Below, one piece after another: positions 33,778 to 57,659 of a DNA stretch of 64,000 nt. The stretch covers positions 64,001 through 128,000 of the forward strand of contig JAVZLS010000002.1 of assembly GCA_038883715.1 (NCBI GenBank), given 5' to 3'. The stretch is from Candidatus Bathyarchaeia archaeon. Lineage in GTDB: Archaea > Thermoproteota > Bathyarchaeia > Bathyarchaeales > Bathycorpusculaceae. The translations under genes were made by a program, and so were the position numbers. Position 1 is the stretch's first letter. Each line of letters opens with the position of its first letter. The notes under the pieces are model-generated. The model saw only the letters and a program-made list of their open reading frames with translations, was not told where the DNA came from and made no database searches.

Positions 33778-36663
33778 TTGAAAAATATTTGCACATCCCT
33801 CCTTATAGCAACACTTACCTTGGCAGGCACGTTGCAGCTGTTCATAACTAGGGTTTCCAACGCAAATCCAGAAACGATATTATATGTCTCTCCGTCTGCA
33901 ACAAGAGTCCATGTCAGTGAAATATTCTCCGTAAACATTTCTATCCAAAACGTCATCGACCTATATGCATTCCACTTATTCTTAAAATATAACACAACAT
34001 TTCTGGATGCGCTAGGCGTCTACGTTTATCCACCTTTCAATACAGGCCCGATACTTCCCCCGGTAATAAGTGAGCCCAACGGCTGCATCGAGGTTTCTGG
34101 CGTTATAGGTTTTCCAGGTCAAGGCTTCTGGGGAAGTTTCCCCCTAGTAAATATAACCTTTAAAGCGACATCTTTTGGATATAGCTACTTGCGTCTCTGC
34201 GATACTGAATTATGGAACTCCATGTCGAGTCCGATAACTCATGTAACAGCGGATGGAGCAGTCGAAATTTATATTTGGACCGGAACTGTTCATATCCGGG
34301 GCGATGGAGGCATCGATCCGCCAGATGCGCCCATAATAACATATGATAATATAACTTACGCTTTTGTAGGCGATATTAATGGTTCAATAGTGATTGAGAG
34401 AAGTTACATAACTCTAGATGGTGCTGGATACACTCTACAAGGAGTAGGCGCTGAGTTTGGAATACAATCTGTTAGCGCCGTTAATGTAACTGTTCAAAAC
34501 ATTAAAATCACCGGTTTCCAAATAGCCCTAGACATTTGTCAGGCAAGATACTGGGTTATAACCAACAACAGCATAACGAATAACGGTGTGGGAATACGCG
34601 TCTACTACCTCTCCAGTAATAACACCGTAATTGAAAACCATATCGTAAACAACGGTAACGGAATCAAGATTTCAGCATACGCAAAGTCTAACAATATTGT
34701 AAACAATACAATTGTTGACTGTGATATTGGAGTAGTCATCACGTCTTTTTATTCTGAAGATGGTTACAACAATGTTATGGGAAACTGGTTCATAAATAAC
34801 GATTGTGGCGTTTTCATAGATAAGCCAGAACACAACACATTCTACCATAACAACTTCGTTTCAAACGCTTACCAAGTTTACATTTATGGTGAAACGGAAA
34901 ACATATGGGATAATGGAAGCGAAGGCAACTACTGGAGCGACTACAATGGAACAGATGCAAACGGCGACGGCATAGGCGACACACCATACATCATCAACCA
35001 AAACAATATGGACAACTATCCATTGATGCAACCCTGGGCCCCTCCATGGGGCGACTGGAAACACTACCACAGCTACAATGAAATCGTAAGCACACTACTT
35101 TTCCTAAACAGCAGCTTCCCAAAAATCGTTGAAGTCTTTTCAATCGGAAAAAGCCACCAAGGAAGAGAAATCTACTGCATAAGACTGACAAACGAAACAA
35201 ATGCTTTTCTCAAACCCGAAGTGTTATTTGTTGGATACCACCATGCACGTGAGCCTATAAGTGCAGAATTGCCCTTGTACTTCGCTCTATCCGCTGCGGT
35301 CGGTTATGGAGCAAATCAAACTATAACTTACCTAATAAACAATTGCGAAATTTACATTGTAGTGGCCTTAAACGTTGATGGTTTCGACTTGTTCAATGCT
35401 AACGACTGGCAAAGAAAAAATGCTTGTCCTGTTGATGAAGATGACGATGGCCTTTTTGATGAGGATCCCCCCGAAGATGAGGATGGAGACGGGTTTATCG
35501 AGCAACTTATTAACTACACTGATCCGGAGAATCCTGTTTTAATTGGTTGGGAGGGAATCGACAACGACGGTGATGGCCTTTCTGGAGAAGACTGGATAGG
35601 AGGAGTTGATCTGAATCGAAACTACAATTATGCTTGGGAACAAGGGACTTCAAACAAGCGGTCTGAATTGTATAAAGGTTCTAAACCATTCTCAGAACCT
35701 GAGACGCAAGCAATAAGAGATTTAGTTCAACAGCACAATTTCATGTATGCAATTAGTTTCCATTCCGGAATGGAAATGATACTGTATCCATGGGGATGCA
35801 CTCGTAACCCACCTCCCGACGAAGCCAGATATAAAGAAATTGCCAATGAACTTTCGCTGGCCAGTGGTGGAACACCGTATATGCAGTCTTCTTTCGGTGC
35901 AGGACTTGTTTATGGCATTTGGGATGATTGGATGTACGGGACGAAAGGCGTCTTTGCACTTACATGCGAAATTTTCTACAACGAAACCTGGGAAGGAATA
36001 AGCGAACCAGGACCCTACCCAAACACAAGGTGGGAAGGTGGAATAAAATACTGGTTTAATCCATTCCCCAATGGGATAGAAGCCACCATACAGCGTTGGC
36101 TGCCAGTTTTTACCTGCATAACAAATAGAACAATAAGCGAGTTTCAATATCGCAATATTGCAGTGACCGGCGTAACAGTTCTTAAATCAATAGTTGGACA
36201 AGGCTTCGCCATGAACATAAGCGTCAAAATCGCCAACTATGGTGAGTTTATGGTAACCTTCAACGTTACAGCCTTTGCTAACGAAACATCGATAGGAACA
36301 AAAGAAGTCACACTTGAAGGCAATTCATCTTTAAGCCTTACCTTCACATGGAACACAACGAGCTATGCGAAAGGCAACTATACGCTTTGGGCTTATGCAT
36401 GGCCAGTACAAGGCGAAACAGACATAGAGGACAACATTTTAGCAGCGCCCTTCATGGTTAGTATTGTTATACCCGGAGATGGCAACCTCAACGGCAGAAT
36501 CGAGATACTTGATGTTGTCTTAGTTACAAGCCGATACGGCGCAAAAAAAGGCGATACCAATTACGATCCAAACGTTGACTGGAACAGCGACGGAAAAATC
36601 GACATACTAGACGTCGTAATAGTAACAAGCCGATACGGCCACGCTGAACCATACTTTTTCTGA
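33778..36663 (+). CDS. Secreted multidomain M14 zinc carboxypeptidase: cohesin - NosD-like beta-helix - M14 - CARDB-like Ig - dockerin
   Basis: Signal peptide; cohesin (FSVNISIQNVIDLYAFHLFLKYN...LVNITFKA); GNYWSDYNGTDANGDGIGDTPY; M14 residues HHARE, RKN, GVDLNRNY, ISFHSG, TCEI; terminal dockerin GDGNLNGRIEILD...DWNSDGKIDILD. Confidence 0.88.
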   Translation: MKNICTSLLIATLTLAGTLQLFITRVSNANPETILYVSPSATRVHVSEIFSVNISIQNVIDLYAFHLFLKYNTTFLDALGVYVYPPFNTGPILPPVISEPNGCIEVSGVIGFPGQGFWGSFPLVNITFKATSFGYSYLRLCDTELWNSMSSPITHVTADGAVEIYIWTGTVHIRGDGGIDPPDAPIITYDNITYAFVGDINGSIVIERSYITLDGAGYTLQGVGAEFGIQSVSAVNVTVQNIKITGFQIALDICQARYWVITNNSITNNGVGIRVYYLSSNNTVIENHIVNNGNGIKISAYAKSNNIVNNTIVDCDIGVVITSFYSEDGYNNVMGNWFINNDCGVFIDKPEHNTFYHNNFVSNAYQVYIYGETENIWDNGSEGNYWSDYNGTDANGDGIGDTPYIINQNNMDNYPLMQPWAPPWGDWKHYHSYNEIVSTLLFLNSSFPKIVEVFSIGKSHQGREIYCIRLTNETNAFLKPEVLFVGYHHAREPISAELPLYFALSAAVGYGANQTITYLINNCEIYIVVALNVDGFDLFNANDWQRKNACPVDEDDDGLFDEDPPEDEDGDGFIEQLINYTDPENPVLIGWEGIDNDGDGLSGEDWIGGVDLNRNYNYAWEQGTSNKRSELYKGSKPFSEPETQAIRDLVQQHNFMYAISFHSGMEMILYPWGCTRNPPPDEARYKEIANELSLASGGTPYMQSSFGAGLVYGIWDDWMYGTKGVFALTCEIFYNETWEGISEPGPYPNTRWEGGIKYWFNPFPNGIEATIQRWLPVFTCITNRTISEFQYRNIAVTGVTVLKSIVGQGFAMNISVKIANYGEFMVTFNVTAFANETSIGTKEVTLEGNSSLSLTFTWNTTSYAKGNYTLWAYAWPVQGETDIEDNILAAPFMVSIVIPGDGNLNGRIEILDVVLVTSRYGAKKGDTNYDPNVDWNSDGKIDILDVVIVTSRYGHAEPYFF

Positions 36664-36816
36664 TTGCGACTATATGGGAGATTGCGGGCGCTTGTTATAA
36701 AGATGGAATGGGAGAAATCGAGTAACAATACTAGACCTTGTCTCAATTACAAGGGTGTATGGCGCTATGCCAAGGCTTAAATAGCATTTTCAACCAAATT
36801 AACTTGGTGGTCGTGG

Positions 36817-37041: not shown

Positions 37042-37185
37042 ACAAACATCCTTTTTCTCTATCGATTTTTAAAGGATGAAAAGTCTCTAACCATTCGAGT
37101 TGTTCTCTAGAGGATTATTCCATAATTTTTAAAAAACCGTTTGTGCATTTATTTCCTAGCCACAAGGAGGAAGGAGAGCACTCAA

Positions 37186-37458
37186 ATGGAAAGTAAACTG
37201 TTATTATCGGCGCTTGCTCTGGTTATAATAATGCTGCTGACGCCCCAGCAGACCAGTGCACAAATCAGGGGTGACATAGACGGCGACGGCGACGTAGACA
37301 TAATCGATATAACACTTGCAGCAAGCCAATATGCAAAAAAGCCTGAAGACCAAGATTACAACAGTACCATTGTTGAAAAGGCCGATTTGGCTCCACCATT
37401 CAACGGCATCATAAACATATTAGACATGGTTACTTTGGCAAGCTGTTATTCTGGTTAA
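37186..37458 (+). CDS. Secreted dockerin-only microprotein
   Basis: GGAGG SD, signal peptide, then only GDIDGDGDVDIIDITL...ADLAPPFNGIINILDMVTL. Confidence 0.8.
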   Translation: MESKLLLSALALVIIMLLTPQQTSAQIRGDIDGDGDVDIIDITLAASQYAKKPEDQDYNSTIVEKADLAPPFNGIINILDMVTLASCYSG

Positions 37459-37544: not shown

Positions 37545-38045
37545 ATGGCCGGCTTCAAAAAAATTGTTAAGACAATTGCTGAAAATAAATTTGATATTGC
37601 AGTGGTTATTTTGTGCTCCTTTGTAGTGTCTTGCCTTGTCATAAAAGTTTATTGGATGGCATATAACACGAGGCCTCGTTTGCAAAATGAGAAGCCCCTC
37701 CGACCGTCATACGATCTTAGCAGCTTTGAGTCCGTCGACTTATTAATTATCATTCTTGCTGGAATAATTTTGGGTGTTTCCATAACAGACGTTAAGAAAA
37801 TGCTTTATGGTTATGCTGGAGCAATGTTTCTAGCCTATTTTATCAGTGTTGCATTCTTCTTCTGTCACACGTGGTTTTTGAAGGGTTTCCAATATGGTTT
37901 AAGTTCTATCCCATACGGTTGGGAGTGGGCACTTCTTGCCGCAGTACTTGACGCGTTCGTTTTAATGGTGCCTTGGGCTGTGTGTTTATGTTTGGTTGGG
38001 ATGATCGTAGGCGCCTTTGTTAGAGTGTGGGTCTCACCATTCTGA
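37545..38045 (+). CDS. 4-TM membrane protein
   Basis: Four hydrophobic segments; own BRE/TATA. Confidence 0.75.
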   Translation: MAGFKKIVKTIAENKFDIAVVILCSFVVSCLVIKVYWMAYNTRPRLQNEKPLRPSYDLSSFESVDLLIIILAGIILGVSITDVKKMLYGYAGAMFLAYFISVAFFFCHTWFLKGFQYGLSSIPYGWEWALLAAVLDAFVLMVPWAVCLCLVGMIVGAFVRVWVSPF

Positions 38046-38126: not shown

Positions 38127-40286
38127 ATGAAAAAAATCGAGAAAAAATCTATCATAGTAAGTTTTCTAACATTAATTGCAACTGTTTCAATGGTCAGCTT
38201 CAACGGTATTGTGATGCGTGCAAATTCGTTGGAACTCCCGACACAATATCCGCTTGTTTATGTATATCCGGAGAATATTACGGTCGGAGTTGGCGACTAT
38301 TTTACAATAAGCGTTGTAGTGTATAACCTAACTAATATAAAAGTGCAAGATCCTGAGAACCCCACACAATGGATTCCATTGGGCAACTTATATGGATTTG
38401 ACATACAGTTCAGTTGGGATCCAACAATTATAAAATATGTTAACTATACTGTAACAGTGCCTGTCAATAATTATTCAAATCCTGTTCCCCCAAGCCCCTA
38501 CCCAGGAATTCTCTACAATCCCTACGTGGAGGTAAAAAATTTAGTTGACGAGGCTGGAAATATTCCAGGTGCTGCTGATCCGCGGGTAAGAGCATGGTTC
38601 TCTTACGCCTCGATGGCTCCAGCTCCAGCCTTCAATGGAAACGGAACAATATTCACAATGACTTTTCAAGCCATCAAAAGAGGATCAAGTCTCCTAGAAA
38701 TAGTGGACTGCACCCTAGCCGATAGTTTCGGAGATGCAATTGCAAAACACAAATGCACTCAGTACGGCGGCCAGTGGCTTATCCCCCCAAGAAATGGAGA
38801 AGTTGATGTAGGTGCTCCTCCAAAAGCGGATTTCACTTTCTGGCCAGACATTGGCGTAGTAAACTTACCAATAACCTTCACAGCCATAGTAATTGGAAAC
38901 ACAAGCAACATTCAAGAATACATTTGGGATTTCGGCGACGGGACACAAGAAACCGTTCCACAACCAATAATACTACACACATACACCACTCCTTCATTTG
39001 AGTATGGTGTGTCTCTAAAAGTTAGGGATGCTGAAGGTGTTGAGAGCCGCCCTGTAACTCGTAAAATAACAGTTGTGCAGTCTCGAGACTTAAAAGCCAC
39101 CGCCATTACATTGTCCCAGAAGGCTGTAAAACCAAATAGTCTATTCAGCATAACTGCTGCAATAGAAAATATGGGGACGGCTCCTTTTACTTTCGTTGAA
39201 AATTGCACATTAGAAATTTATCGTAATAATACATTTGTGGATCCCAATAACCCTGCCGATTTAGACCCCTTAAACTCAAAATGGACAATAATAAAATCAA
39301 AATGGACGCTGTTAACAGCACCTTACCCACCTCCACAACATCCTTCACCAACAACTATAACCATATCCCTTAATAGCACAACAGCATTCGGCGAATACAC
39401 AACTGAAACTTTCTACTACTTCCTGTTGCGTTTAGTAGGAGTACCTGAAGGATACGAAGCTGATCAAACAAATAACATCGCTGTATCCGATTATATAATG
39501 TACACAATTCACGACATTGTAATACTCAAAATAGCAAGCGTAGACTATGGATATGAAATAGGTAGGACATATAAAAGGCCCTTAATCGAAGGCGAAAATG
39601 CGACATTTAAATGTACAATTATAAATCAAGGAGTTATAACAGCCAACTTTACGGTTATTCTTCGCCTAAATGACACTATTGTAGGGACAATTGAAATTTT
39701 CAATCTTGAATCGGGAACCAGTTCGACGAGTAGTTTTAGGCGCAAAATTGAGTCCAGAGGTAACTATAACGTTTCAATAAATATTGCTAGTGAAAACGAA
39801 GGCATTATAGCTGATATGTGGCAAGGATGGCTCATAGTGATTAAACCACCAATAATAAATGTTACTGTCAGCAATCAAAATCCCACTGTAGGCCAAACAG
39901 TAACTTTCGAAGCTTCAGTAAATGTTCAAGAGCCTAACACCAATATCACACTTTACGGGTGGAAAGTTTACAAGCCCGACGTAGACCCCGAATCAGGGAG
40001 TGCATTTAAAACTTTTTGGGGGAATACAACGCTGAGTTTCTCTTTCGATGAGCCTGGCAAATGGACTGTTACCTTCGAAGTCTCTGATAGCCTAGGATTA
40101 AAATATGATCCCAGACGACCGGCGACAAAGGCTTACAGAGTTCTTCTTAGTATATCTGTAGGAGGCGGAGGCTTTCCAGTCGAATGGATTTTGGCCATCA
40201 TGTTAGTTATAATTATAGCCGTTGCTTTAATTGTTTACAAGCGAAGAAAGAAAAAAGTTTTTCCAATATCAGAGGAAGAGGAATAA
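38127..40286 (+). CDS. Membrane-anchored cohesin protein: cohesin - PKD - CARDB-like x2 - PKD-like - TM
   Basis: LYGFDIQFSWDPTIIKY...FNGNGTIFTMTF; PKD YIWDFGDG; GGGG linker, TM, KRRKKK. Confidence 0.82.
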   Translation: MKKIEKKSIIVSFLTLIATVSMVSFNGIVMRANSLELPTQYPLVYVYPENITVGVGDYFTISVVVYNLTNIKVQDPENPTQWIPLGNLYGFDIQFSWDPTIIKYVNYTVTVPVNNYSNPVPPSPYPGILYNPYVEVKNLVDEAGNIPGAADPRVRAWFSYASMAPAPAFNGNGTIFTMTFQAIKRGSSLLEIVDCTLADSFGDAIAKHKCTQYGGQWLIPPRNGEVDVGAPPKADFTFWPDIGVVNLPITFTAIVIGNTSNIQEYIWDFGDGTQETVPQPIILHTYTTPSFEYGVSLKVRDAEGVESRPVTRKITVVQSRDLKATAITLSQKAVKPNSLFSITAAIENMGTAPFTFVENCTLEIYRNNTFVDPNNPADLDPLNSKWTIIKSKWTLLTAPYPPPQHPSPTTITISLNSTTAFGEYTTETFYYFLLRLVGVPEGYEADQTNNIAVSDYIMYTIHDIVILKIASVDYGYEIGRTYKRPLIEGENATFKCTIINQGVITANFTVILRLNDTIVGTIEIFNLESGTSSTSSFRRKIESRGNYNVSINIASENEGIIADMWQGWLIVIKPPIINVTVSNQNPTVGQTVTFEASVNVQEPNTNITLYGWKVYKPDVDPESGSAFKTFWGNTTLSFSFDEPGKWTVTFEVSDSLGLKYDPRRPATKAYRVLLSISVGGGGFPVEWILAIMLVIIIAVALIVYKRRKKKVFPISEEEE

Positions 40287-40320: not shown

Positions 40321-41808
40321 TTACTTTGAATGTTTTTTCATGCGCATTGCTATCGTTATCGTTATCATTAATGCTGTTATAGCGGTCAAAAACCATTGTA
40401 ATGACGTGGCGGATTCTGGGATGACATTTGAGGTAATTAAAGCTACACTATGTAAACCTCCTGGGAGTTCAAAGTAAATGTAAGTGTTCTGTCCATTTTC
40501 TGTTATTGTTGGGGTCGCTCTCCATCCGTCTATTAGTAGTATCCATCCGTCTGTTGACCACATGAAATCTTTTGGAATTGTTATATTACAGTAGCCAACG
40601 TATCCTTCAGCGCCTGTTGCATCAAATAGTAACAATGGTACTCTTGGAGTGAATTCAATAGATGAAATTGAGGAATTACTTTCAATAGTCACCACATATC
40701 CTGGTAGTGGTTCGTATTCTGTTATTCCTATAATGTTGGCGAAACCGTTAACGACCGTGAATGGTATAGGGACGGAGCAATCTGAATTATTGAAAGGTGG
40801 TTCTGGGCGTTCTGGATGCGGGAATGCAGCGAGGCTGAAGAGGTCTGCCAACTTTTCGATAGGGGCGCTTGCGTTGGCTTTAAAGGTGATTGTGCATAGG
40901 GTGGCGTCGCCGTAAGGTTCTACGTGAGTGCCGTTTTCATAGGGTATACCTAAAACTGCTAACCAAACTATTCCATCAGCATTGTTTGTTTCATTCTTTA
41001 TTATCATTATATCGCTCCAGAAGCTAGCAAACCAGCCATCAGGGTCGGCTATCACTTTTGTGGCTTCAAGTAATTTAGGGTCGTATTTTATTTTTATGTC
41101 AAAACCACCTAAATCCCAGTATGGGTCTAAGTTACGTATTGAGACATTTATGTCAAAGATGTGAGGTACTGGTCCCTTGTAGTTTATTGAAGAAATTTCT
41201 AGTGTTGGCCCTTGCGGTTGCGGGATCCCATGAAGTATTATATGTAGGTTAACAATTTCATGTTCTATAGGTTCACCGTAAAAATTAGCTAGGGTGCTAC
41301 CTGTCACATTCACGTATATATGCGAATCGTAAATCATTGGATGCTTCTTTACACGGAACGTCATTTCAAAAGCTACGCCTGTCCCATTGAATTTTGCCGC
41401 TGGTGCCATTGAGGCTTCTGCGAGCCAGTACATGGTTCCTGGCTCTGCTCCTGGCATACTGGCTGATTCGTCCACATCGTCCTTAACAGGAACCGTGGGC
41501 GGATATAATATGCCGTCAGGCCACTGTCCAGACCCAGTTCCTTTTGGTATGTGTTTTTGGTGGCTTACATATTCTATGTATTCTGTTGTCCATCCAACTT
41601 GAATATCTACGCCATAGAGCAGTGAAACATTTTCAATTACGCAGCGAACTGTAAAAGTTTGTCCAGTCGCATTTGCTGGTCCCAATTCAGAAACATCTGA
41701 TACTATTTTTAGTTTGGTTGTTGCTTGTGCTTTTAAAATTTTAATGTTTGTAGTAAGCATTGCAACTGTTAGCAGAAAAGCTATTGTCGCGGCAATTTTC
41801 CTTTTCAT
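40321..41808 (-). CDS. Membrane-anchored two-cohesin protein with a PEF-CTERM-like sorting signal
   Basis: Cohesin 1 LYGVDIQVGW...GVAFEMTF; cohesin 2 LGGFDIKIKYDPKLL...LCTITF; C-terminal domain, then VIPES-TM-RMKKHSK. Confidence 0.8.
   Translation of the reverse strand: MKRKIAATIAFLLTVAMLTTNIKILKAQATTKLKIVSDVSELGPANATGQTFTVRCVIENVSLLYGVDIQVGWTTEYIEYVSHQKHIPKGTGSGQWPDGILYPPTVPVKDDVDESASMPGAEPGTMYWLAEASMAPAAKFNGTGVAFEMTFRVKKHPMIYDSHIYVNVTGSTLANFYGEPIEHEIVNLHIILHGIPQPQGPTLEISSINYKGPVPHIFDINVSIRNLDPYWDLGGFDIKIKYDPKLLEATKVIADPDGWFASFWSDIMIIKNETNNADGIVWLAVLGIPYENGTHVEPYGDATLCTITFKANASAPIEKLADLFSLAAFPHPERPEPPFNNSDCSVPIPFTVVNGFANIIGITEYEPLPGYVVTIESNSSISSIEFTPRVPLLLFDATGAEGYVGYCNITIPKDFMWSTDGWILLIDGWRATPTITENGQNTYIYFELPGGLHSVALITSNVIPESATSLQWFLTAITALMITITIAMRMKKHSK
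41408..41571. repeat. Dispersed ~164-bp repeat copy A (cohesin core)
   Basis: Shares exact 23/32/26-bp blocks with copy B and 29/23-bp blocks with copy C. Confidence 0.9.
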
Positions 41809-41880
41809 TTCATCACCTTAGCCATTATTTGGTTCTGATGAGTATAAGAATTTTACTGATTTTAAATTCAGAAAACCTGT

Positions 41881-41901: not shown

Positions 41902-43821
41902 TTAACAGCGCTGTCCATATTTTGATGAACACGTTACAAGGTCTAAAATGTTAATGAAGCCCCATGGTGGGGCTATGTCTGCATCTGGGTTCCAGTTAGG
42001 GTCTCCTTCATGTGTGCTGTAAGATATTGTAATGGCTACTATGTCGAGAATGTCTATTACTCCGTCACCGTTAACATCGCCTATCATTTTTATTTTCACC
42101 CATCCGTCATGGTAAATGTTGTTTTCCAAGTTTATCTCGTAGGGTACTGGTGAGGCTTCCGCCCATGCTGTAAGGTTGCTACATGGCGTTAAACCAGAAG
42201 TGTTCCAGTTGAACGTCAGTGTTGTGTTTGTCCAAGGAGCTAATGTCACTGTTTGAACACCCACTTTTATTGTGCCAGCGTACAGCGTTACGTTAAAGGT
42301 CTCAGTTGTCATGTTTCCTCTGTTCATCGCCACAACTTCAATCGTGACAATTCTACCTGGATAGACCTTGTTGGAAGACGTAACAGTTACGGAAATAATT
42401 GCTACATCTCTGAGAAGTGTTGCAAAGAAGCCATCCTCTGTTTCATGCCGCATTGAGTTTCCAGTTTGGTCACTTATTCTCGTGTCAAAAAGATCCAGTA
42501 CTGTCTGTCCGTAGTCTTGAACCATGAAGAAAATATGTGTTACAGTTTTTGCTTCATAAATTGAGAATGGTTCTGCAGGCTGGTAGTACTGTACGTAAAC
42601 GCGTATCAGCCCGGCGATGTCATTAATGTTCATTTCTACTGTGAAGTGTGTATCGTTGTTTGGCGGAACTATTATTGCTCCTAGGCATGTTAGAACGTTT
42701 GTGTCGTATGCGAGTTTAAATTCGTAGTCATACATGTCAATAGCGTTTTCGATCATTATATCTATTGAAAATGTGTCGCCAGGTTTCATCGTTGGATCTA
42801 TGAGCTCTGGTGGATAAACAAACATTCTGGTTATTAGCATGTTGTTGAAGTATCCATCATTTGGCTCGTAAATCTCTATTTTGCCTCCTTCGCTGTTCAG
42901 TAATGTCACGTCATGCAAGTCAAGGACGGTTTCTCCTTTATCTAGTATGTGGAATGTTATGTTAGCTAAGTACAAGTCGCCGCTAACTGAAATCTGTGGA
43001 GGTGAAAGCGAAGAAGATACTTCTATTTGGCCTTCCTCCTTTGTTATTATTGGCGGCTGGAATATCGGATTAACACCAACTGTGGATACTTCCAACAAAG
43101 TGCCATTGTATCCAAGCCAGAAGTCAAATGCGTGTAAATCTTGAACATCCTCAACTTTTATTGAAACCGTGAAGTATTGACATGGGTTCAATGTAGAGTC
43201 AACAATCCTTCTGGGATCTACGGATACATAGGCCGGCGGAGGCGGTGGTGGTACATAATTAATAAATAGTCCATCAATTAGAGTGACTGGAATTGGATCT
43301 CCATTCTTGTCTGCGAGGGTGCAGGCGGTGAAATGGAGAGGCGACTTACCTAAGCCGACAACCGTGAATTTCATTTCAAAGATTACTCCACTTCCGTTGA
43401 AAGGTTTAGCTGGTAGTATTGAGGCTTCTGCGAGCCAGTATCTTGTTCCTGGTTCTGCTCCTGGCATACTGGCTGATTCGTCCACGTCATCCTTAACGGG
43501 GATTGTTGGTGGATTGAGTACGCCGTCAGGCCACTGTCCTGCGCTCGTCCCCTTAGGTATGTGTTTTTGGTGGCTTACATACTTTATTATTGTTGGGTTC
43601 CATGTGAATTGAAGGTCTATACCATACAAGTTTGTGACGTTTGCTATTTTGACTTTTATTGTGAAGTTGGCTGGCGGCATTAAATCTTTAATTTCAGGCG
43701 GGTCAACATAAACTACCGCTTGCTCTTGTCCTCCGGAGCTTGATGCTCTGGGTAGGAAAAGGATGGCACTTAGCACTAGAAAAGCTATCAACATGACTAT
43801 TTTCATTCTTTTTAGTTTCAT
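41902..43821 (-). CDS. Scaffoldin-like adaptor: 3 cohesins - CARDB-like Ig - dockerin
   Basis: LYGIDLQFTWNP, LHAFDFWLGYNGTLL, MYDYEFKLAYDTNVL cohesin starts; terminal GDVNGDGVIDILD...ADIAPPWGFINILD; no TM; ATG 43821 after purine-rich SD. Confidence 0.85.
   Translation of the reverse strand: MKLKRMKIVMLIAFLVLSAILFLPRASSSGGQEQAVVYVDPPEIKDLMPPANFTIKVKIANVTNLYGIDLQFTWNPTIIKYVSHQKHIPKGTSAGQWPDGVLNPPTIPVKDDVDESASMPGAEPGTRYWLAEASILPAKPFNGSGVIFEMKFTVVGLGKSPLHFTACTLADKNGDPIPVTLIDGLFINYVPPPPPPAYVSVDPRRIVDSTLNPCQYFTVSIKVEDVQDLHAFDFWLGYNGTLLEVSTVGVNPIFQPPIITKEEGQIEVSSSLSPPQISVSGDLYLANITFHILDKGETVLDLHDVTLLNSEGGKIEIYEPNDGYFNNMLITRMFVYPPELIDPTMKPGDTFSIDIMIENAIDMYDYEFKLAYDTNVLTCLGAIIVPPNNDTHFTVEMNINDIAGLIRVYVQYYQPAEPFSIYEAKTVTHIFFMVQDYGQTVLDLFDTRISDQTGNSMRHETEDGFFATLLRDVAIISVTVTSSNKVYPGRIVTIEVVAMNRGNMTTETFNVTLYAGTIKVGVQTVTLAPWTNTTLTFNWNTSGLTPCSNLTAWAEASPVPYEINLENNIYHDGWVKIKMIGDVNGDGVIDILDIVAITISYSTHEGDPNWNPDADIAPPWGFINILDLVTCSSKYGQRC
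43418..43581. repeat. Dispersed ~164-bp repeat copy B (cohesin core)
   Basis: attgaggcttctgcgagccagta...ggtatgtgtttttggtggcttacata, colinear with copy A at offset 2010. Confidence 0.9.
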
Positions 43822-43915
43822 TTTCCCTTCTCCTCTGCCTATTTTTTGTTGCAAGAAAAACTTAAAGGTTATGGAAGATAGTTCTGGCAAGTCTTTGCAT
43901 GTTCTATTACTGGTA

Positions 43916-46870: not shown

Positions 46871-48757
46871 TTATGCTGCGTTTATTCCGAAGTGGACTAT
46901 TGTTTCTGGTTCTCTTGTTGGGTAGATGGAGTCTCCGCCTAGTGTTGGCCAGTTGTGGAGGACTTGTACGTATATTGTTCCGACGCCTGCTCTGGCGAAC
47001 TTTGGCACGTGGATTGTTAGGGTTACCGTAGTGTTGGCGTATGTGCACCATTCTGCTCCGCCGACTGGTACCCATGTGTAGTCGAAGCCGAAGGGTACTC
47101 CTGTTTCATCTACGGCTGTGACTGTGATTAGTATGTCGAAGGTTTGCCTTGAAACTGTTCCAAGGTCAATTGTTACAGTTATTGTTTCGCAGTGGTTGTA
47201 GGCGTCTTTGTCGACTGTTGTCTTCCAGACGCGGACGTGGTAGTCGTATTTGAATTCTAATGTGTCGGTTACGACTTTGCATGCAACGTCAACTGTGGCC
47301 ACTATCTTCCATACGCCGAACCAGTATTCTGGGTCATCACATGGCCATGGCAATCTAAAGCGTATTACTGCTACGCCGTTCTGGTCTGTTCTGTTGCATA
47401 TTATGCCCCAAATTTCACCATGGGGGTCGATTATTTGGAAGGCTACATCCTTGTTTTGTTCCGGCCAGAAGTTGTATGTTACATTCGCCTTTACAACAAC
47501 TTCCTTCTGTGGCCAGTACATGTCGCCTGGCTCGTTGGGTCCTACGCCGAATATTGTTCCGTCTGGGTAGACTGTGTAGATGTCTATCCATGCGCCTGGG
47601 GGTTTGAAGTAGGCTTTGTATGTTGCTGGGTTAATGAAGTGGTCTAGTGGTACGGCTGAGTCTGAGCCGCTCCATGGTGGATAGGCTCTTTCTGGGTGTG
47701 GGAAGCCGGCTACTGTTGAGTTTACTATGTTTATTAGGCATGATGGTGGCGGATATGTAGCTGATTCATAAACCGCCCTGAAGGTTACTGAAACTATTCT
47801 TCCTTGTCCGCTTGGTGGCGTGTGGGTTCCATCGTCTCCTGGTATTCCTAGGAAGGCTATCCAAATTGTTCCGGCAACGTTGTCTATTTCTGCTTTCACG
47901 GTGAATATGCCGTTTGGCCAGAAGCTTGCAAACCAGTTGTCTGGATCTATGGTTACGCTATCGGCCACTATGAGGGTTGGGTCGAAGGTTATGTGGAAGT
48001 CGAAGCCTGCCACGTCCCAGAATGGGTCTAAATCTACAACTTGCTGGCTGGTTTCATCCCATGCGTGTAGAAAGACATTCTCAACGAAGGTTTGATCCAT
48101 TTTGATATTTTCAACTTTTGATGGCAGTACGCTCAGCTTTGGTGCTGGCGGATAAATTAGTGGTCTCGCGTGGATTATGACTGTGCCATCAAACACGTCA
48201 CAATCTATTGGGTTGCCTAGGTTGTCTGCAAGTGTTACCGTTGTAATGTTTAGGCAAAGGACTTTGTCTGGCTCTCCAGGCATGGGTTGCTTCTTGATTC
48301 TAAAGGTCATGTCGAAGGCTACACCACTTCCAGTGAATGGTTGTGCCGGAGCCATTGAGGCTTCTGCAAGCCAATAGTCGCTGTTGGGGTCTGCTCCAGG
48401 CATTGGAACGCCTTCTGAAACATCGTCCTTAACAGGAACCGTGGGCGGGTACAGTATGCCGTCAGGCCACTGTCCAGCCCCCGTGCCCCTCGGTATGTGT
48501 TTATGGTGGCTTACATATCCTATCCACTCTTCGTCCCAGCCGAATTGTATGTCGACACCGTAAAGGTTGGTCACATTCCAGACTTCAACGGTTACTGTGA
48601 ACTCTTGGTCAACGCATGGTGTTGGTCCGAACTCCAAAAGCTGTGGCACAACTATTACTTTTGGTTTTGGCTCTGCTTCCGCTCTGGGCATGACGATGGC
48701 TAGGGTGCTTGCTAACATTAATGCTGTCATTAATAAGCCGAAAATCTTCCTGTTCAT
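46871..48757 (-). CDS. Secreted two-cohesin + two Ig-like domain protein (candidate major surface/S-layer scaffold)
   Basis: Cohesins LYGVDIQFGWD and VAGFDFHITFDPTL, paralogous to 40321..41808; no TM or dockerin; strongly biased codons; ATG 48757. Confidence 0.8.
   Translation of the reverse strand: MNRKIFGLLMTALMLASTLAIVMPRAEAEPKPKVIVVPQLLEFGPTPCVDQEFTVTVEVWNVTNLYGVDIQFGWDEEWIGYVSHHKHIPRGTGAGQWPDGILYPPTVPVKDDVSEGVPMPGADPNSDYWLAEASMAPAQPFTGSGVAFDMTFRIKKQPMPGEPDKVLCLNITTVTLADNLGNPIDCDVFDGTVIIHARPLIYPPAPKLSVLPSKVENIKMDQTFVENVFLHAWDETSQQVVDLDPFWDVAGFDFHITFDPTLIVADSVTIDPDNWFASFWPNGIFTVKAEIDNVAGTIWIAFLGIPGDDGTHTPPSGQGRIVSVTFRAVYESATYPPPSCLINIVNSTVAGFPHPERAYPPWSGSDSAVPLDHFINPATYKAYFKPPGAWIDIYTVYPDGTIFGVGPNEPGDMYWPQKEVVVKANVTYNFWPEQNKDVAFQIIDPHGEIWGIICNRTDQNGVAVIRFRLPWPCDDPEYWFGVWKIVATVDVACKVVTDTLEFKYDYHVRVWKTTVDKDAYNHCETITVTIDLGTVSRQTFDILITVTAVDETGVPFGFDYTWVPVGGAEWCTYANTTVTLTIHVPKFARAGVGTIYVQVLHNWPTLGGDSIYPTREPETIVHFGINAA
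48354..48517. repeat. Dispersed ~164-bp repeat copy C (cohesin core)
   Basis: acatcgtccttaacaggaaccgtgggcgg (48420-48448) identical to 41474-41502. Confidence 0.88.
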
Positions 48758-48870
48758 TTCCCTCTTTCCCCTTCTCCTTTCTTTCAGCAAGAAATATTTT
48801 GATGCGTTTCTCTAATTAAAGGTTTCTGGAGAAATCTTCTATGCCAAACCCAAAGCCATAAACTAAAATA

Positions 48871-49275
48871 TTAATTTTTAGCTCCAGCGGGTTTCTCTTC
48901 GGCTTTCCCCTTCTTATCCTTTCTCTTAATCAATTTTTTATATTCTTCTAAAAGCTGGTCAACTTCAGGGACCTTCTGCCTTCTCGGCGGGGTGAAAAGT
49001 GGATCTGAGCTCTTGACAATTTTAACTTCTTTTAAATCATATTGGGCTTTTAGGCGTTTTTCCTCCCAAATTAACGCGTATATAATGATGGCTATCGGCC
49101 CTATCAAAAATAGCAGTGGATTAACGAAAAGAAGGTAAAGTTCTACGTATAGGAATATTGCAAATAGGGTTGGGAGCCAAAACCAGAAGGATGTTAGGCA
49201 AACCTTGATAATTACCAATATCTCTTTAGTAGACTCCTTTAAGCTTTGTTTTTCTTCGTTTTCCTCACTGGACAA
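48871..49275 (-). CDS. Small 2-TM membrane protein
   Basis: Two TM helices, charged tail; resembles 28460..28849. Confidence 0.7.
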   Translation of the reverse strand: MSSEENEEKQSLKESTKEILVIIKVCLTSFWFWLPTLFAIFLYVELYLLFVNPLLFLIGPIAIIIYALIWEEKRLKAQYDLKEVKIVKSSDPLFTPPRRQKVPEVDQLLEEYKKLIKRKDKKGKAEEKPAGAKN

Positions 49276-49454: not shown

Positions 49455-52184
49455 ATGAAGAAAACAGTTGTTCCAACAGCAGTCCTTGTTGCCGTGTTAC
49501 TGGCTTCAATCTTCATGATGATTCCAGCGGCAACAGCTGAGCGCGGGCCGAGAAGGGACCTAGACATTTACTGGTACACTGATCCTGATGCGGCTTGGAC
49601 GGCTCTAAAGAAAGGCGAAATTGATATGATGCAGTGGTCTCTAAGCGAGGAACAATTGGCTGAAGCTGTTGCAGATCCAAACATTGTTGTCGCAAGCTAT
49701 GTTGAAAACGGTATGATGGAGTTCGACTTTAACAACAACAAAACAATTGCTGATTACCCAACGTCAACAAACCCGATGAGTATCACGGAATTTAGGATAG
49801 CTTTGGCTTACCTGATAGATCCTGACTACGTTGTTAGGGACATATTGCACTATTTCGGTTCAAGAATAGATGCACCAGTATGCTACCCACAGATTGAGGG
49901 TTGGGTTTACCCGCCCGAATCAGGCTTAAGCGTTGTAACCTACGACTGGAACCACAACGGCAAAATAGACCCCGAAGAGGACAACTATCCATACAAATAT
50001 AGCGTGGACAAGGCTGCAGAAACGCTTGCCCAAATGGGCTTCAATGACACCGACGGGAACGGCTACCTAAACTATCCAAACAACCCAGAGGTTTGGGGTG
50101 ACGCAGCAGGAAAAGACACAACTAAGATGCCTCTAAAAATCTGTATAAGGACAGAGGACCAGAGGCGCGACGCTGGCCGCTACCTGTACAGGCAGCTTGA
50201 AGGCGACCCTAATGTGGCGGGAGACAGCGCCCTAGCCCGATCGCCTAAATGGGCGCAATACGGCAAGGTTGGAGGAGACTTTGATACAACGGATGAAACA
50301 TGGGTTCAGCCAAGAAAAGTTCTATCCCCAATAGTCTTCAGAGACCGCAACTACCACATTTACACAGGCGGATGGAGCTTCGGAAGGTTCCCAACATACC
50401 TGTTCTTCCTGTTCCACAGCATGTTCTGGTTCCCATACGGATCAAACTACGTTTCTGACCATGCCCATCCAGACTTAGACCCAATTCTTGAGGACATATA
50501 CTACGCCAACAGCATACCAGACGCCCAAATCGCAGCAAAAAACTACACGCGTGAGCACGTCCTCAGGGTCATTAACAGGCCGTTATGGAGCTACACAAGC
50601 TACTATGCATGGCGCAAGACGCTTGTTGGCGTAGTTAACATGAAAGGCTATGGAGTAGTAAACGACTACACGTTCCTAAACGCCTATAGAGCCGATAGCC
50701 CAACAGGCCCCATAAGAATGGGAGTTGTCAACACATGGGACCGTCTAAACATCCTCTACAGCCAATGGGTCTTCGAATATGCCTTCCTAGACCGCGTCTA
50801 CACTGGCGGAATAGCCGTCAACCCATACGACTTAACAGTTGACATCCCATGGGCCTTCCAAGACTGGGATGTCGGCACATGGGTGGACCCGAGAGACGGC
50901 CATACCAAAACTGTGGTTACATACTGGATTAGGCCAGACGTTGGCTGCGCCGCCCCAGTTAATGGAAACTTCACAGGCTTCTACAATTCGAAAGACTTTG
51001 AATTTACAATATGGTACAACTACGCTTATGACGACAGCTGGCAATGGAGCAGCTTCATGGACATACACCACACAGAAATAATTGACTGCCGCACAATAAG
51101 AGTCTACTTCGACGACCAAAGCTACTGGTTCCAGTACGCGCCAACATACCCGCTCCTAGGACCATCAGAAATCCTAAGCGACCAACTCTGCACAGAAAAG
51201 ACTGCAACCTTCACAGGAGCAGACCTTGTAGAAGTGGCTCCAGGCTACTTTGAATACCAATTCACAACAGACCAGGTTGCAGGCGTAATAAACGCCACAT
51301 GCAACGGCGTCCCCATATATGAAGGCGTAGATTTCTACATAAGGGCAGGCTACGACGTATACTGCCACAACGTCTTCGTAAACCTAACAAGCTTCAAACC
51401 AACCGACATAATAACAATTAGCTACTACAAGCCTATACCTGCTGGCGCAGACGGCACCTTCTTAGGAGGCAACGCAGGATACGACTGGACAGACACAATG
51501 TTCGCTTACGGCCTATACTACCCAGTTGCGCTCACCAGCACAGAAGCAGCCCTAAACAAGAACCCATACTTCTTCCTAGAAACACCAATCCTTGGCGAAA
51601 TCGACTGGCGCTGGAACTGGGTGGCGGGACCAAAGCCGCGCAAAGGCTACTTCAAAATCGACATACTAGACGTAGTAAAATGCACAGGATCCTACTGCCA
51701 CAGAGGAGACGGACCCTTCGACCCAGTCTACATGCCAGGAGCAGACCTAGACAAGAACGACCTAGGCCACGTGGGCATACTAGACCTAGTAACAATAACA
51801 GGAGTATATGCTAGAACCTTTGGAACAGTGCCGGCCAGCACGGTAGGAGTTGTCGGAGGCACAACAGACACCACAGCCAACTACAAAATCCAATGGGAAA
51901 CCGCATACTTCTATTACGTCAAATACAACGTGCCAACCCCAGTTAAGAAAAGCTACCACTCTGTCTACGTTTACGGCCTCGGAAGACCAATAACCGTAAG
52001 AGTCTACCCATACTGTTTCAGCCCAAGAGACGTCCTAATCTGGTGGAAGAAATACGGAGACGGCACAACAACAATAGCTCCAACCTACGTTGAAGTTTCG
52101 ACAACAGCCCCAACCTACGCCATAAACGTCATATGGCACAAGCCAGATTGCACATGGGAAAAACTACTAATCTGGATCGATTAA
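49455..52184 (+). CDS. oppA: Family-5 (OppA/DppA-like) ABC substrate-binding protein, circularly permuted, with dockerin-like module
   Basis: ALKKGEID, FRIALAYLID, YSVDKAAETL, GGW..LFHS precede the normally N-terminal IRMG..LN..VY..P segment; KIDILDVV...ADLDKNDLGHVGILDLV; directly upstream of oppBC. Confidence 0.85.
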   Translation: MKKTVVPTAVLVAVLLASIFMMIPAATAERGPRRDLDIYWYTDPDAAWTALKKGEIDMMQWSLSEEQLAEAVADPNIVVASYVENGMMEFDFNNNKTIADYPTSTNPMSITEFRIALAYLIDPDYVVRDILHYFGSRIDAPVCYPQIEGWVYPPESGLSVVTYDWNHNGKIDPEEDNYPYKYSVDKAAETLAQMGFNDTDGNGYLNYPNNPEVWGDAAGKDTTKMPLKICIRTEDQRRDAGRYLYRQLEGDPNVAGDSALARSPKWAQYGKVGGDFDTTDETWVQPRKVLSPIVFRDRNYHIYTGGWSFGRFPTYLFFLFHSMFWFPYGSNYVSDHAHPDLDPILEDIYYANSIPDAQIAAKNYTREHVLRVINRPLWSYTSYYAWRKTLVGVVNMKGYGVVNDYTFLNAYRADSPTGPIRMGVVNTWDRLNILYSQWVFEYAFLDRVYTGGIAVNPYDLTVDIPWAFQDWDVGTWVDPRDGHTKTVVTYWIRPDVGCAAPVNGNFTGFYNSKDFEFTIWYNYAYDDSWQWSSFMDIHHTEIIDCRTIRVYFDDQSYWFQYAPTYPLLGPSEILSDQLCTEKTATFTGADLVEVAPGYFEYQFTTDQVAGVINATCNGVPIYEGVDFYIRAGYDVYCHNVFVNLTSFKPTDIITISYYKPIPAGADGTFLGGNAGYDWTDTMFAYGLYYPVALTSTEAALNKNPYFFLETPILGEIDWRWNWVAGPKPRKGYFKIDILDVVKCTGSYCHRGDGPFDPVYMPGADLDKNDLGHVGILDLVTITGVYARTFGTVPASTVGVVGGTTDTTANYKIQWETAYFYYVKYNVPTPVKKSYHSVYVYGLGRPITVRVYPYCFSPRDVLIWWKKYGDGTTTIAPTYVEVSTTAPTYAINVIWHKPDCTWEKLLIWID

Positions 52185-55209: not shown

Positions 55210-55581
55210 TTATAAACGGACTAATATTTCATCAACAAATCTCCAAAAACGTCTCTCCAACTCATCTATTTTTTCTAAAGATCTTGACCCCTTTAAATAA
55301 AGATGTCCTCCAAGTATTAACGAATAAAATGGTGTAAATAAAGTCAAATGCCGCAAAAGCGGTCCAGGCAAAAACTCAACAGTAAAATCGTCAGGCTTTC
55401 CCTTAATATAGACAAAAATTTTTTCAGATATACCGTGAAAACTTTTGGGAAAGACCGTGATGATGTAAGCTTCCTTCTTCCTCTTTAGAGATACATCAAA
55501 CCCCTCGTTGGTAAAGAATTGGCATATACAATCACTTAGTACTTTTAGATCAATGTTTTTTCCTTTCCACGAATCTTTCAT
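55210..55581 (-). CDS. Hypothetical protein inserted antisense within the opp cluster
   Basis: 123-aa ATG-start ORF filling the oppC-oppD gap. Confidence 0.65.
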   Translation of the reverse strand: MKDSWKGKNIDLKVLSDCICQFFTNEGFDVSLKRKKEAYIITVFPKSFHGISEKIFVYIKGKPDDFTVEFLPGPLLRHLTLFTPFYSLILGGHLYLKGSRSLEKIDELERRFWRFVDEILVRL

Positions 55582-55677: not shown

Positions 55678-56646
55678 GTGAATGGTATGCCAATACTAAG
55701 CGTTGAAAACCTAACAACCTATTATCGGACTTTAAGAGGTTATGTTAGAGCTGTTGAAAATGTAAGCTTCAACTTAGAGAAAGGGGAAGCCATGGGGTTA
55801 GCCGGTGAGTCTGGCTGTGGGAAAACAACAGTTGCACTATCAATTCTAAAACTTTTGCCTTTCAATGGAGAAATAGTTAAAGGACATATATTTTTTAAGG
55901 AAAATGATATTGTAAACATGAAAGAAAGCGAGCTACGTGAAAACGTCAGATGGAAAGGCATATCTCTGATTTTCCAAGGAGCAATGAACGCATTAAACCC
56001 TGTCTATAGCGTTGAATATCAAATTATAGAGGCTATTAAATTGCATGAAAAGAATGTGAGCAAAAAAGAAGCTAAAGAGCGGGTGCGGAAACTCTTTGAA
56101 CTCGTCGGCTTAGACCCAAAACGGGCCTCTAACTACCCCCACGAGTTCAGCGGCGGCATGCGGCAACGTGCGATGATTGCCATGGCCCTCGCATGCAACC
56201 CAGACATACTTATTGCCGATGAACCTGGAACTGCATTAGACGTAGTTGTTCAAGCGCAAGTTCTAAAATTAATGAGAAGTCTCAAAGAAAAGCTAAACCT
56301 TGGAGTAATAATTATCACCCATGACCTTTCAATAATCTCTGAAACATGCGAAAAGTTCGCCGTTATGTATGCTGGAAAAATTGTTGAACTTGGAGATGTT
56401 TTAACAGTTTTCAAGGAGCCTCTACACCCTTATACACAAGGTTTGATATCGGCATTTCCAAATATTAAGGAGCCGAAACGCAAAATGGAATCAATACCAG
56501 GATCACCTCCAAACCTTTTAAATCCTCCATCAGGATGTAGGTTTAACCCTCGCTGTAAGTATACAATGGACAAGTGCAAAAAGGATGAGCCTGAAGTGAT
56601 AGAGGTGTCAAAAGGCCATTTTGTAGCATGTCATCTTGTAAGGTGA
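55678..56646 (+). CDS. oppD: Oligopeptide ABC ATPase OppD/DppD
   Basis: [35 protein letters not shown]...VACH; likely start ATG 55687. Confidence 0.95.
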
Positions 56647-57659
56647 TTGATTTTATGTCGGAACATATCATAAAAGTTGAAAAGCTTAGAAAATGGTTCC
56701 CTGTTAGGCTAGGTTTCTTTCGTTCTCTTATCTCAAGGAGACAGCTCTTTGTCCGCGCAGTTGATGGTGTCAGCTTCGAAATTCACAAGGGAGAAATCTT
56801 TGGTCTTGCAGGAGAAAGCGGCAGCGGTAAGACAACAACTGGCCGCATGCTTGTTAAACTCATAGAACCGACGAGTGGAAAAATAATCTTCCGCGGCCAA
56901 GATATCACATTCCTTAAACCAGAAGAAGTAAAGCCTTTACGGAGACATTTCCAAATAGTGTTTCAAGATCCCTACGAATCTTTAAATCCCAGAATGACTG
57001 TTGGCGATATTTTGGCTGAACCATTAAGGCTTTTAAAGGTCGTAGAGTCGGAAGACGAATTGGAAGCAAAGGTTAGGCAAATACTTGAAGATGTTGAACT
57101 AATCCCTCCAGAAGAGTTTATATTCAGATATCCCCACGAGTTAAGTGGAGGACAGAGGCAGCGAGTCGCAACTGCAAGGGCTTTTGTTGTTAATCCAGAC
57201 TTTATAGTGGCAGACGAGCCGGTTTCAATGTTGGATGTTTCAATAAGAGCTGAAATACTTAAGTTAATGCTATCGCTGGTAGATAAGTACAAAACCTCTT
57301 TCTTATACATCACGCACGACCTAGCGTTGTCGAGGCATATGTGTGACCGTATTGGAATAATGTATCTTGGAAAAATAGTGGAAATGGGAACAAGCGACCA
57401 AATAGTCTATGAACCATTACATCCCTATACCAAAGCATTAATAGACGCCGTGCCAGTACCAGACCCCCTTGCAAAAAGAGGCGACGTTGTTATTAAGGGA
57501 GAAATTCCGAGCCCAATCAATCCTCCACCAGGCTGCCGTTTCCACACGCGATGTCCCCAATACATAGGTGACATCTGCCGCACAAAGGCGCCACCATTTA
57601 TGGACATGGGTAAAGGACACTTCGTTGCCTGTCACCTTTACGCAGAAGAGGCAAAGTAA
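56628..57659 (+). CDS. oppF: Oligopeptide ABC ATPase OppF/DppF
   Basis: [52 protein letters not shown]. Confidence 0.95.

Follow-up and report, generated by a model that had tools for sequence, protein, structure and literature searches.

The 64,000-nucleotide stretch analysed here (the window, to which all coordinates refer) belongs to the genome of an uncultured hot-spring archaeon, Candidatus Bathyarchaeia archaeon, represented by a 1.33-Mb assembly that is 90% complete. The region 33778..57659 hosts a cluster in which nine cohesin modules, carried by five proteins, and five dockerin modules, also carried by five proteins, adjoin a five-gene ABC (ATP-binding cassette) importer of the Opp type. 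Since all the sockets and plugs are found in one cluster, and a carboxypeptidase and the importer's binding protein both bear plugs, the cluster probably builds a surface scaffold for nutrient capture. It is somewhat probable, in our judgement, that the locus encodes a complete and self-contained cohesin-dockerin assembly of the cell surface, in which the dockerin of the binding protein replaces a membrane anchor, and trimmed peptides are captured and imported.

A sequence-only reading of the same DNA had listed about nine cohesin-like modules (in genes 33778, 38127, 40321, 41902 and 46871, denoted here by their first coordinate) and five dockerin-like modules beside oppA-B-C-D-F, and had proposed to check this picture by searches with the Cohesin and Dockerin_1 models, by a genome-wide census of dockerin cargo and by an analysis of synteny across Bathyarchaeia. 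The parts list was borne out, with genes and modules at the positions given, as detailed below, and the census points to a single site. By searching the whole assembly with Pfam models and with profiles built on the locus modules, no cohesin was found outside the locus, and the sole dockerin match elsewhere was one weak Pfam hit (E 0.114). The full dockerin cargo of this genome consists of an M14 enzyme, a beta-sandwich protein, a dockerin-only peptide, an adaptor and the binding protein OppA. The whole repertoire adjoins the one complete Opp operon seen in the genome; a second SBP_bac_5 gene is truncated, resides elsewhere and lacks a dockerin.

Cohesins were identified by several routes. Pfam scans of whole proteins detected Cohesin in the products of genes 40321, 41902 (three stretches) and 46871. 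When modules were scanned singly against PF00963, four of the nine were above the cut-off, and for four Cohesin was the best match below the cut-off. The cohesin of protein 38127 has no Pfam match, and is 45% identical to cohesin 1 of protein 41902 (BLASTP E 6.7e-26). A profile of the nine modules matched 16 cohesin chains among solved structures at E<1e-3 (best 3l8q_A, 4.5e-12). Cohesin 1 of protein 41902, a member of the subtype with a long conserved insert and the only module on which the fold was checked, is predicted by AlphaFold2 to be all-beta (predicted local distance difference test score, pLDDT, 90.4; predicted template-modelling score, pTM, 0.86). Among the Foldseek matches listed for this model all are cohesins, the best being 6kgd_A (E 2.4e-8, template-modelling score, TM, 0.72); the Archaeoglobus fulgidus cohesin 2xdh is one of them (E 2.8e-7, TM 0.73). 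Judged by sequence the nine modules are cohesins, and the predicted model bears out the beta-sandwich cohesin fold for one.

As for the five dockerins, Pfam Dockerin_1 (PF00404) is above the cut-off in one (the M14 protein, 23.4 bits) and below it in three (proteins 41902, 45740 and 37141), and does not match the OppA module. A profile of the five retrieved dockerins among solved structures (best 2y3n_B, 1.9e-8). Two tandem repeats, each made of a calcium loop plus a helix, are visible in all five aligned modules, given the roles that we presume for the loop residues; in the dockerins of proteins 41902 and 37141 the second loop is Pro-rich. The profile derived from the other four dockerins hits the OppA insert at E 1.7e-7, as the sole further match among the 14,563 six-frame open reading frames of the genome, and the module is kept in 62 of 62 aligned members of the OppA family. 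On the grounds of transitive homology, and of retention in all of these members, the insert is taken to be a genuine, if divergent, homologue of dockerins. Modelled alone by AlphaFold2 from an 11-sequence alignment, the OppA-type dockerin reached a pLDDT of 49.3 only.

The recognizable cargo had been described as a dockerin-tagged M14 carboxypeptidase and an OppA-type binding protein, with no glycoside hydrolase in sight, and all this agrees with the Pfam assignments and with the leave-one-out profile reported above. The secreted 961-aa enzyme encoded by gene 33778 (33778..36663, + strand) carries a signal peptide, a cohesin (33862-34287), a NosD-type beta-helix (~34459-34950), the M14 carboxypeptidase domain (~35095-35976), an Ig-like spacer and a C-terminal dockerin (36457-36642). 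Pfam scores are 182.8 bits for M14, 76 bits for NosD and 23.4 bits for Dockerin_1 (cut-off 22.9); the cohesin is sub-threshold in Pfam and reaches 157 bits with the locus profile. Carboxypeptidase T (3qnv_A, E 6.5e-41) is the nearest match of the M14 domain, and the stretches which we take to be zinc-binding and catalytic align identically. An insert of ~60 aa rich in Asp, Glu and Gly (35400-35590) splits the carboxypeptidase T-like domain between the two halves that align, and resembles by eye calcium-binding repeats. Neither whole-protein nor per-module Pfam scans detected glycoside hydrolase families in the proteins of the locus.

OppA (49455..52184, + strand, 909 aa) includes a signal peptide, an SBP_bac_5 core (Pfam, 56.2 bits), the divergent dockerin (51609-51830) and an extension of ~115 aa. 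Neither a C-terminal membrane helix nor a cysteine lipobox can be read in its translation. The extension (aa 796-909, 51831-52184) is beta-rich, matches no family, and is shared by 4 of 61 aligned relatives; most members of the family end a few residues past the dockerin. At least 67 protein clusters share the dockerin-bearing C-terminal region of OppA, one of them also featuring an N-terminal cohesin. The natural 905-aa protein P0166 combines an N-terminal cohesin, whose nearest subtype is that of the adaptor and the M14 protein, with an SBP_bac_5 core and an OppA-type dockerin. Its layout, cohesin-cargo-dockerin as in the M14 protein, suggests daisy-chaining.

Two further cargo proteins bear dockerins. 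Gene 45740 (45740..46762, - strand) encodes a non-catalytic cargo of 340 aa with a signal peptide, a beta-sandwich part of ~250 aa and a C-terminal dockerin (45743-45934), which scores 108.4 bits with the locus profile and 18.0 bits, sub-threshold, with Pfam Dockerin_1. An atlas look-up of the beta-sandwich part gave only leads below 0.9, MG2/Ig-like in kind; the counterpart found in the related locus L012 carries both MG2 and Dockerin_1 by Pfam. Gene 37141 (37141..37458, + strand) encodes a secreted 105-aa protein made of a signal peptide and a dockerin (37255-37455), and little else. The module (97.6 bits with the locus profile, 15.9 bits, sub-threshold, with Pfam Dockerin_1) is 45% identical to the adaptor dockerin, and in several relatives dockerins are likewise found in short open frames (83-103 aa). 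The protein is possibly a cap, or a competitor, for cohesins.

The other cohesins reside in four proteins. Two of these, encoded by genes 38127 and 40321, had been read as membrane-anchored, and hydrophobic C-terminal segments are indeed present in both. The 719-aa protein 38127 (38127..40286, + strand) carries a signal peptide, a cohesin (38241-38810, 173.5 bits with the locus profile), a PKD and a CARDB domain assigned by Pfam, a second PKD-like part and a C-terminal transmembrane helix (hydrophobic segment at aa 678-696), followed by a basic tail. The 495-aa protein 40321 (40321..41808, - strand) carries a signal peptide, two cohesins (41224-41724 and 40723-41214; Pfam Cohesin 33.0 bits, the second module alone 24.2 bits), a domain of ~130 aa without known family, and a C-terminus in which, by reading the sequence, a hydrophobic tail is followed by basic residues. 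A search of 1.84 billion representative proteins gave 1,539 relatives of it (E<=0.001). Gene 41902 (41902..43890, - strand) encodes the adaptor scaffoldin, 662 aa in length (639 aa if starting at the next ATG), with a signal peptide, three cohesins (43246-43734, 42835-43224 and 42406-42834), a CARDB domain and a C-terminal dockerin (41905-42096). The combination of three cohesins with a dockerin, already proposed from the sequence, is supported by both Pfam and the locus profile: Cohesin scores 68.9 bits over three stretches, and each of the cohesins passes the cut-off alone. Adaptors with the same architecture occur in the loci of six relatives. The 639-aa protein 46871 (46871..48790, - strand) is a secreted scaffold with two cohesins (48155-48676 and 47591-48154) and a C-terminal domain of ~240 aa without known family, for which an atlas look-up gave only MG2/Ig-like leads below 0.9. 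Pfam Cohesin scores 24.9 bits, the locus profile 199 and 136 bits; neither a dockerin nor a membrane helix was found. Its counterpart in locus L022 shares both cohesin subtypes and the position, divergent from OppA.

The genes from 40321 to 49275 lie on the - strand, and OppA, OppB, OppC, OppD and OppF, divergent from these, on the + strand. OppB (52307-53308, + strand) and OppC (53301-55196, + strand, 631 aa) have the BPD_transp_1 domain, OppD (55678-56646, + strand) and OppF (56628-57659, + strand) ABC_tran plus oligo_HPY, and OppC_N was matched as well. The Pfam families of the five genes, all above cut-offs (SBP_bac_5, two BPD_transp_1 permeases and two ABC_tran plus oligo_HPY ATPases), define an importer of the Opp/Dpp/Nik type, and support the early assignment of oppA-B-C-D-F. 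OppC is enlarged by an extracytoplasmic insert of ~335 aa (aa 60-395), which matches no family and does not resemble cohesins. Inserts similar in sequence are found in the OppC proteins (616-643 aa) of L022, L024 and L028, the loci featuring the same dockerin subtype in OppA, and the insert could work as a docking platform. In the 480-bp gap between OppC and OppD lies, antisense, a small gene (55210-55581, - strand, 123 aa) without Pfam family. Counterparts of it are found in nine related Opp/cohesin loci (26-45% identity, E 1e-12 to 4e-37), at the same position in L022, L024 and L028, and this is probably a real gene, linked to the system.

According to the model that we favour, proteins 38127 and 40321 would present cohesins at the cell surface via their C-terminal membrane helices. 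The secreted protein 46871, with its two cohesins, and the adaptor, which has three cohesins and a dockerin of its own, would extend the scaffold and multiply the sockets. Five dockerin proteins would plug in: the adaptor, the cohesin-bearing M14 enzyme, the beta-sandwich protein, the dockerin-only protein and OppA. The dockerin of OppA would take the place of the membrane anchor otherwise needed in a cell without an outer membrane, keeping the binding protein at the surface, near the permease and beside the peptidase. Peptides trimmed on the scaffold would be then captured by OppA and imported.

The distribution of the modules among relatives is consistent with this model. Genomes of the same order were searched (41, including the one described here), and matches to the cohesin profile were found in 25, to the dockerin profile in 21. 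All the 21 dockerin-positive genomes are among the 25 positive for cohesins; the four cohesin-positive genomes without a dockerin-profile match are G001, G015, G026 and G029. In the class as a whole, profile matches were found in 31 of 151 genomes, most of which belong to the order of the archaeon under study. Loci of OppA relatives reside in Bathyarchaeota/Bathyarchaeia in nine out of ten cases, in Woesearchaeota in one.

The notion that dockerins may act as anchors stems from the comparison of binding proteins. All of the 11 binding proteins adjoining Opp genes end in, or contain, a duplicated dockerin-like module, for which Pfam Dockerin_1 is above the cut-off in five, the best match below the cut-off in three, and missing in three. 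None of the 11 has a hydrophobic C-terminus (best 19-residue window <=1.26). Five SBP_bac_5 proteins were found in three genomes without cohesin matches. Three of these close with a linker, Pro/Thr-rich or of another kind, a strong membrane helix (3.16-3.48) and a basic tail, and a fourth has an N-terminal helix. The dockerin occupies the spot where the cohesin-less relatives have a membrane helix, and this is the basis for reading it as a substitute for the anchor. Tethering of binding proteins by dockerins appears to be a lineage-wide habit. The broader proposition that in one order of Bathyarchaeia the binding proteins of importers have as a rule swapped anchors for dockerins, and are plugged with secreted peptidases into scaffolds adjacent to transporters, is advanced with less than even confidence.

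Association with transporters was assessed by picking 13 related loci through cohesin and dockerin matches alone, blind to Opp. Opp genes are found in seven of the 13 (L016, L017, L018, L031, L033, L036/37 and L041), and no Opp gene is found in the other six within the stretch examined. L011, L012 and L015, which were picked through OppA, are cohesin/dockerin loci with Opp genes as well. Two loci of Bathyarchaeia, L022 and L028, repeat the gene order of the window almost gene for gene: a two-cohesin gene, the small membrane gene, a divergently oriented OppA whose dockerin is of the same subtype, then OppB, a long OppC, the small antisense gene, OppD and OppF. The Opp link recurs in relatives, and synteny lends weight to this part of the early proposal. 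A bolder version of the proposition on swapped anchors is prompted by the finding that the OppA-type dockerin, the insert-bearing cohesins and the long OppC travel together in the window, L022 and L028. According to it, the divergent OppA-type dockerin, the insert-bearing cohesin subtypes and the enlarged extracellular domain of OppC may have evolved in concert, and OppA would be docked at its own permease. Co-occurrence of the insert-bearing cohesin subtypes with the OppA-type dockerin in L022 and L028 could also be explained by general relatedness. Attempts to deduce pairs from the three cohesin and three dockerin subtypes failed, because the subtypes are not carried over to most relatives, and the binding proteins of most relatives have dockerins more canonical than that of OppA.

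Several observations weigh against the favoured model. A long N-terminal hydrophobic stretch in OppA could be an uncleaved anchor. The OppA module escapes Pfam, its own profile hits one dockerin among solved structures at a non-significant E of 1.4, and the usual Asp/Asn (acidic) run is absent from its first calcium loop. Binding of dockerins to cohesins, the formation of any given pair, and peptide as the ligand are all inferred. The fifth SBP_bac_5 protein of the cohesin-less set, encoded in G008 (G008:C1:259431-261242, locus L046), a genome of the same genus which is 94% complete, carries a Pfam dockerin (34.7 bits), and no cohesin is detectable in this genome (best E 0.21). G008 is a genuine exception: a dockerin may function with no cohesin to bind, or else the cohesin is missing from the assembly. 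The case indicates in addition that the dockerin profile used here misses some dockerins, and under-counts them. Related genomes are not independent samples. The three S8 peptidases of the genome under study are located elsewhere, and lack dockerins. NCBIfam models for Opp, Dpp and Nik match the importer below their cut-offs only, and the solved relatives of OppA, retrieved by weak and mixed matches, bind peptides, nickel, glutathione/haem, mannosides, chitin oligosaccharides or alpha-galactosides; assigning the ligand by either route failed. Last, cargo in relatives is mostly non-catalytic or of no known activity (beta-helix, PKD, CARDB, MG2-like and beta-propeller proteins, and one BNR-like).

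Cargo was surveyed in the best 120 dockerin-profile matches among 5.8 billion proteins, three of the 120 being those of the window. Cohesins are carried by 43 (adaptors), 14 are beta-helix proteins, two are SBP_bac_5 proteins, 25 have no Pfam family, and 23 have only PKD, CARDB, dockerin or miscellaneous families (17 only PKD, CARDB or dockerin). The remaining 13 are peptidases (eight S8, three M14, one M28 and one C39-like), the sole recognizable enzymes in this set, in which no glycoside hydrolase family was found. A large protein with a PQQ_2-type beta-propeller, combined with PKD, CARDB and a C-terminal dockerin, was seen as cargo in three related loci (L016:7772-10795, L036:9765-12773 and L040:1992-5282). 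The dominance of non-catalytic modules among these 120 matches, along with the beta-propeller, BNR-like and MG2-like cargo of relatives, the six loci devoid of Opp genes in the stretch examined, and the S8 peptidases of this genome lacking dockerins, would be expected if the locus encoded a generic scaffold for surface display or adhesion, adjacent to Opp only because a binding protein needs an anchor, with peptidase and OppA not cooperating. Such a scenario is unlikely, albeit the most serious competitor. Peptidases, as the only recognizable cargo enzymes, recur beside dockerin-tagged binding proteins: an S8 peptidase with a dockerin sits next to one in L014, and S8 peptidases adjoin binding proteins in L015 and L041. 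Besides, the entire repertoire of this genome flanks its one complete Opp operon. The idea of a surface complex that co-locates proteolysis with peptide capture is sustained by the parts list and by the linkage to Opp; the sequence-only reading went too far in regarding the system as built for peptide scavenging, a description that fits the recognizable cargo of this genome, and is too narrow for a family whose cargo is mostly non-catalytic.

The preference for peptides as the ligand rests on the recurrent vicinity of S8 and M14 peptidases, and on the lack of glycoside hydrolases. Some SBP_bac_5 members from archaea and Thermotoga bind oligosaccharides, and the locus might be glycan-directed, with OppA binding oligosaccharides and the beta-helix cargo being active on glycans, as in a true relative of the polysaccharide-degrading cellulosomes. 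Beta-helix, BNR-like and CBM96 neighbours keep a role in glycan metabolism alive. Mannoside-, chitin oligosaccharide- and alpha-galactoside-binding proteins are among the solved relatives of OppA, NosD/Beta_helix cargo is frequent in the best 120 dockerin matches, a CBM96 protein (L034) and a pectinesterase-like fragment (L019) lie near cohesin clusters, and a BNR-like dockerin protein is found in L031. A paper citing Orsi et al. 2018 reads the 'cellulosomes' of Bathyarchaeota secretomes as pointing to carbohydrate use. This alternative is nonetheless improbable: there is no glycoside hydrolase in the locus or in the best 120 dockerin proteins, which include thirteen peptidases, and a comparison of the beta-helix parts with solved structures gave only NosD and one uncharacterised protein. 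Most improbable of all, despite the dockerin-tagged binding protein of G008 with no detectable cohesin, and the four cohesin-positive genomes without dockerin-profile match, is that the modules never pair, cohesins being mere Ig-like structural spacers and dockerins calcium-binding stabilisers, as all the 21 genomes matched by the dockerin profile also have cohesin matches, this genome keeps both kinds of module in a single locus, adaptors combining cohesins and a dockerin are conserved, and archaeal cohesin-dockerin pairs have been reported to bind (work cited in Chadwick et al. 2022, PMC9012536).

Membrane-anchored binding proteins of archaea and Gram-positive bacteria have lipid or transmembrane anchors. 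The need to be kept at the surface is the same for OppA, and relatives lacking cohesins use C- or N-terminal helices; in the present system, by contrast, this anchor appears to have given way to a non-covalent tether of the plug-and-socket type. The hierarchy of anchor, adaptor and cargo is reminiscent of clostridial and ruminococcal cellulosomes (CipA-type, anchoring and adaptor scaffoldins), to whose modules profile and fold matches were obtained. The archaeal system differs because glycoside hydrolases, a carbohydrate-binding module in the scaffoldin, and SLH or sortase anchors are lacking, and because the binding protein of a transporter is part of the cargo. Pfam detected none of these anchors, carbohydrate-binding modules or hydrolases in the proteins of the locus, which is therefore not a cellulosome in the strict sense.

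The sequence-only reading knew of no similar system characterised in archaea. This is too strong, since genomes of ANME (anaerobic methanotrophic) archaea encode, according to Chadwick et al. 2022 (PLoS Biol, PMC9012536), scaffoldin-like proteins that combine a dockerin with up to five cohesins, as well as dockerins on NikA/OppA and TroA binding proteins, all known from genomes and not from experiments. As in ANME, a protein with one dockerin and multiple cohesins (41902), and a dockerin-bearing binding protein of the OppA/NikA type (49455), are found here. By comparison with the text description of that set, the host belongs to Bathyarchaeia and hence to another phylum, the genes form one locus joined to Opp, the cargo includes a peptidase, and the scaffolds end in a C-terminal helix. 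In Archaeoglobus fulgidus, whose cohesin (2xdh) shares the same archaeal fold as cohesin 1 of protein 41902, the modules are isolated, and do not form a multi-cohesin hierarchy (Chadwick et al. 2022, citing Peer et al. 2009). In Ca. Stygibacter (Cloacimonadota; PMC8542988), a cohesin scaffold has been proposed to carry S8 and C25 peptidases, attached through dockerins, with polypeptides as substrate. That complex is bacterial, mixes glycoside hydrolases with peptidases, and uses one giant scaffoldin bearing carbohydrate-binding modules; no binding-protein cargo is reported in the text available. By full-text literature search neither a paper describing a cohesin-dockerin system of Bathyarchaeia nor an experimental characterisation was found; one Bathyarchaeia genomics paper contains neither 'cohesin' nor 'dockerin' in its text, and Orsi et al. 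2018, as cited, mention 'cellulosomes' in Bathyarchaeota secretomes, read as carbohydrate use. What is new in the predicted system is its being compact, transporter-linked and peptidase-bearing; the general kind was already known from ANME genomes.

Other genes of the cluster have no cohesin or dockerin. Gene 43916 (43916..45697, - strand) encodes a membrane-anchored surface protein of 593 aa, in which Pfam and hydrophobic segments reveal a NosD beta-helix, a PKD and two Big_3_5 domains, and a C-terminal transmembrane helix; a similar protein flanks the Opp operon in L028. Gene 48871 (48871..49275, - strand), lying between the cohesin genes and OppA, encodes a small membrane protein (134 aa) with two hydrophobic segments, without Pfam or NCBIfam family, whose counterparts in L022 and L028 occupy the same position (53% and 39% identity). 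Gene 37545 (37545..38045, + strand) encodes a membrane protein with four hydrophobic segments, which has only a weak LtrA match below the cut-off, and no relative among the loci compared; its membership in the system is uncertain.

The flanks of the window are archaeal in content (tRNA-intron endonuclease, proteasome subunit, FttA-type factor, SepF and ATP-dependent DNA ligase). Just upstream of the DNA ligase gene, a HEPN-domain gene and a nucleotidyltransferase gene are adjacent (31177-31868), in a toxin-antitoxin-like layout. Directly after the Opp operon, a surface protein of 989 aa (58500-61469) features four PKD and three Flg_new_2 repeats, and neither cohesin nor dockerin; a PKD protein is found at the same place in L022. 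A gene for an Lrp/AsnC-type regulator (62800-63318) lies ~5 kb downstream of OppF. Near-identical DNA is present in hot-spring metagenome runs from two other studies, in pieces of up to 3.5 kb (~92-97% identity). Metatranscriptome contigs from two runs of one study cover 46871, OppA and OppB at 90-99.7% identity, and a 302-base piece spanning the OppA dockerin shows one difference only. These contigs are no proof of transcription, as DNA carry-over is possible in RNA runs. The lack of coverage by RNA runs at ~36.4-41 kb is uninformative.

Among the uncultured archaea of sediments and hot springs, Bathyarchaeia rank with the most abundant, and they have been repeatedly proposed to live on detrital protein. 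The locus, with its nine sockets and five plugs, is a compact and fully enumerable system. If the favoured model is true, the principle of the cellulosome would be extended from the breakdown of polysaccharides to the capture of nutrients, part of a transporter being among the cargo, and orthogonal cohesin-dockerin pairs derived from a thermophile would enter the protein-assembly toolbox. In Bathyarchaeia, a transporter-coupled 'peptidosome' would hand detrital protein from hydrolysis straight to uptake.

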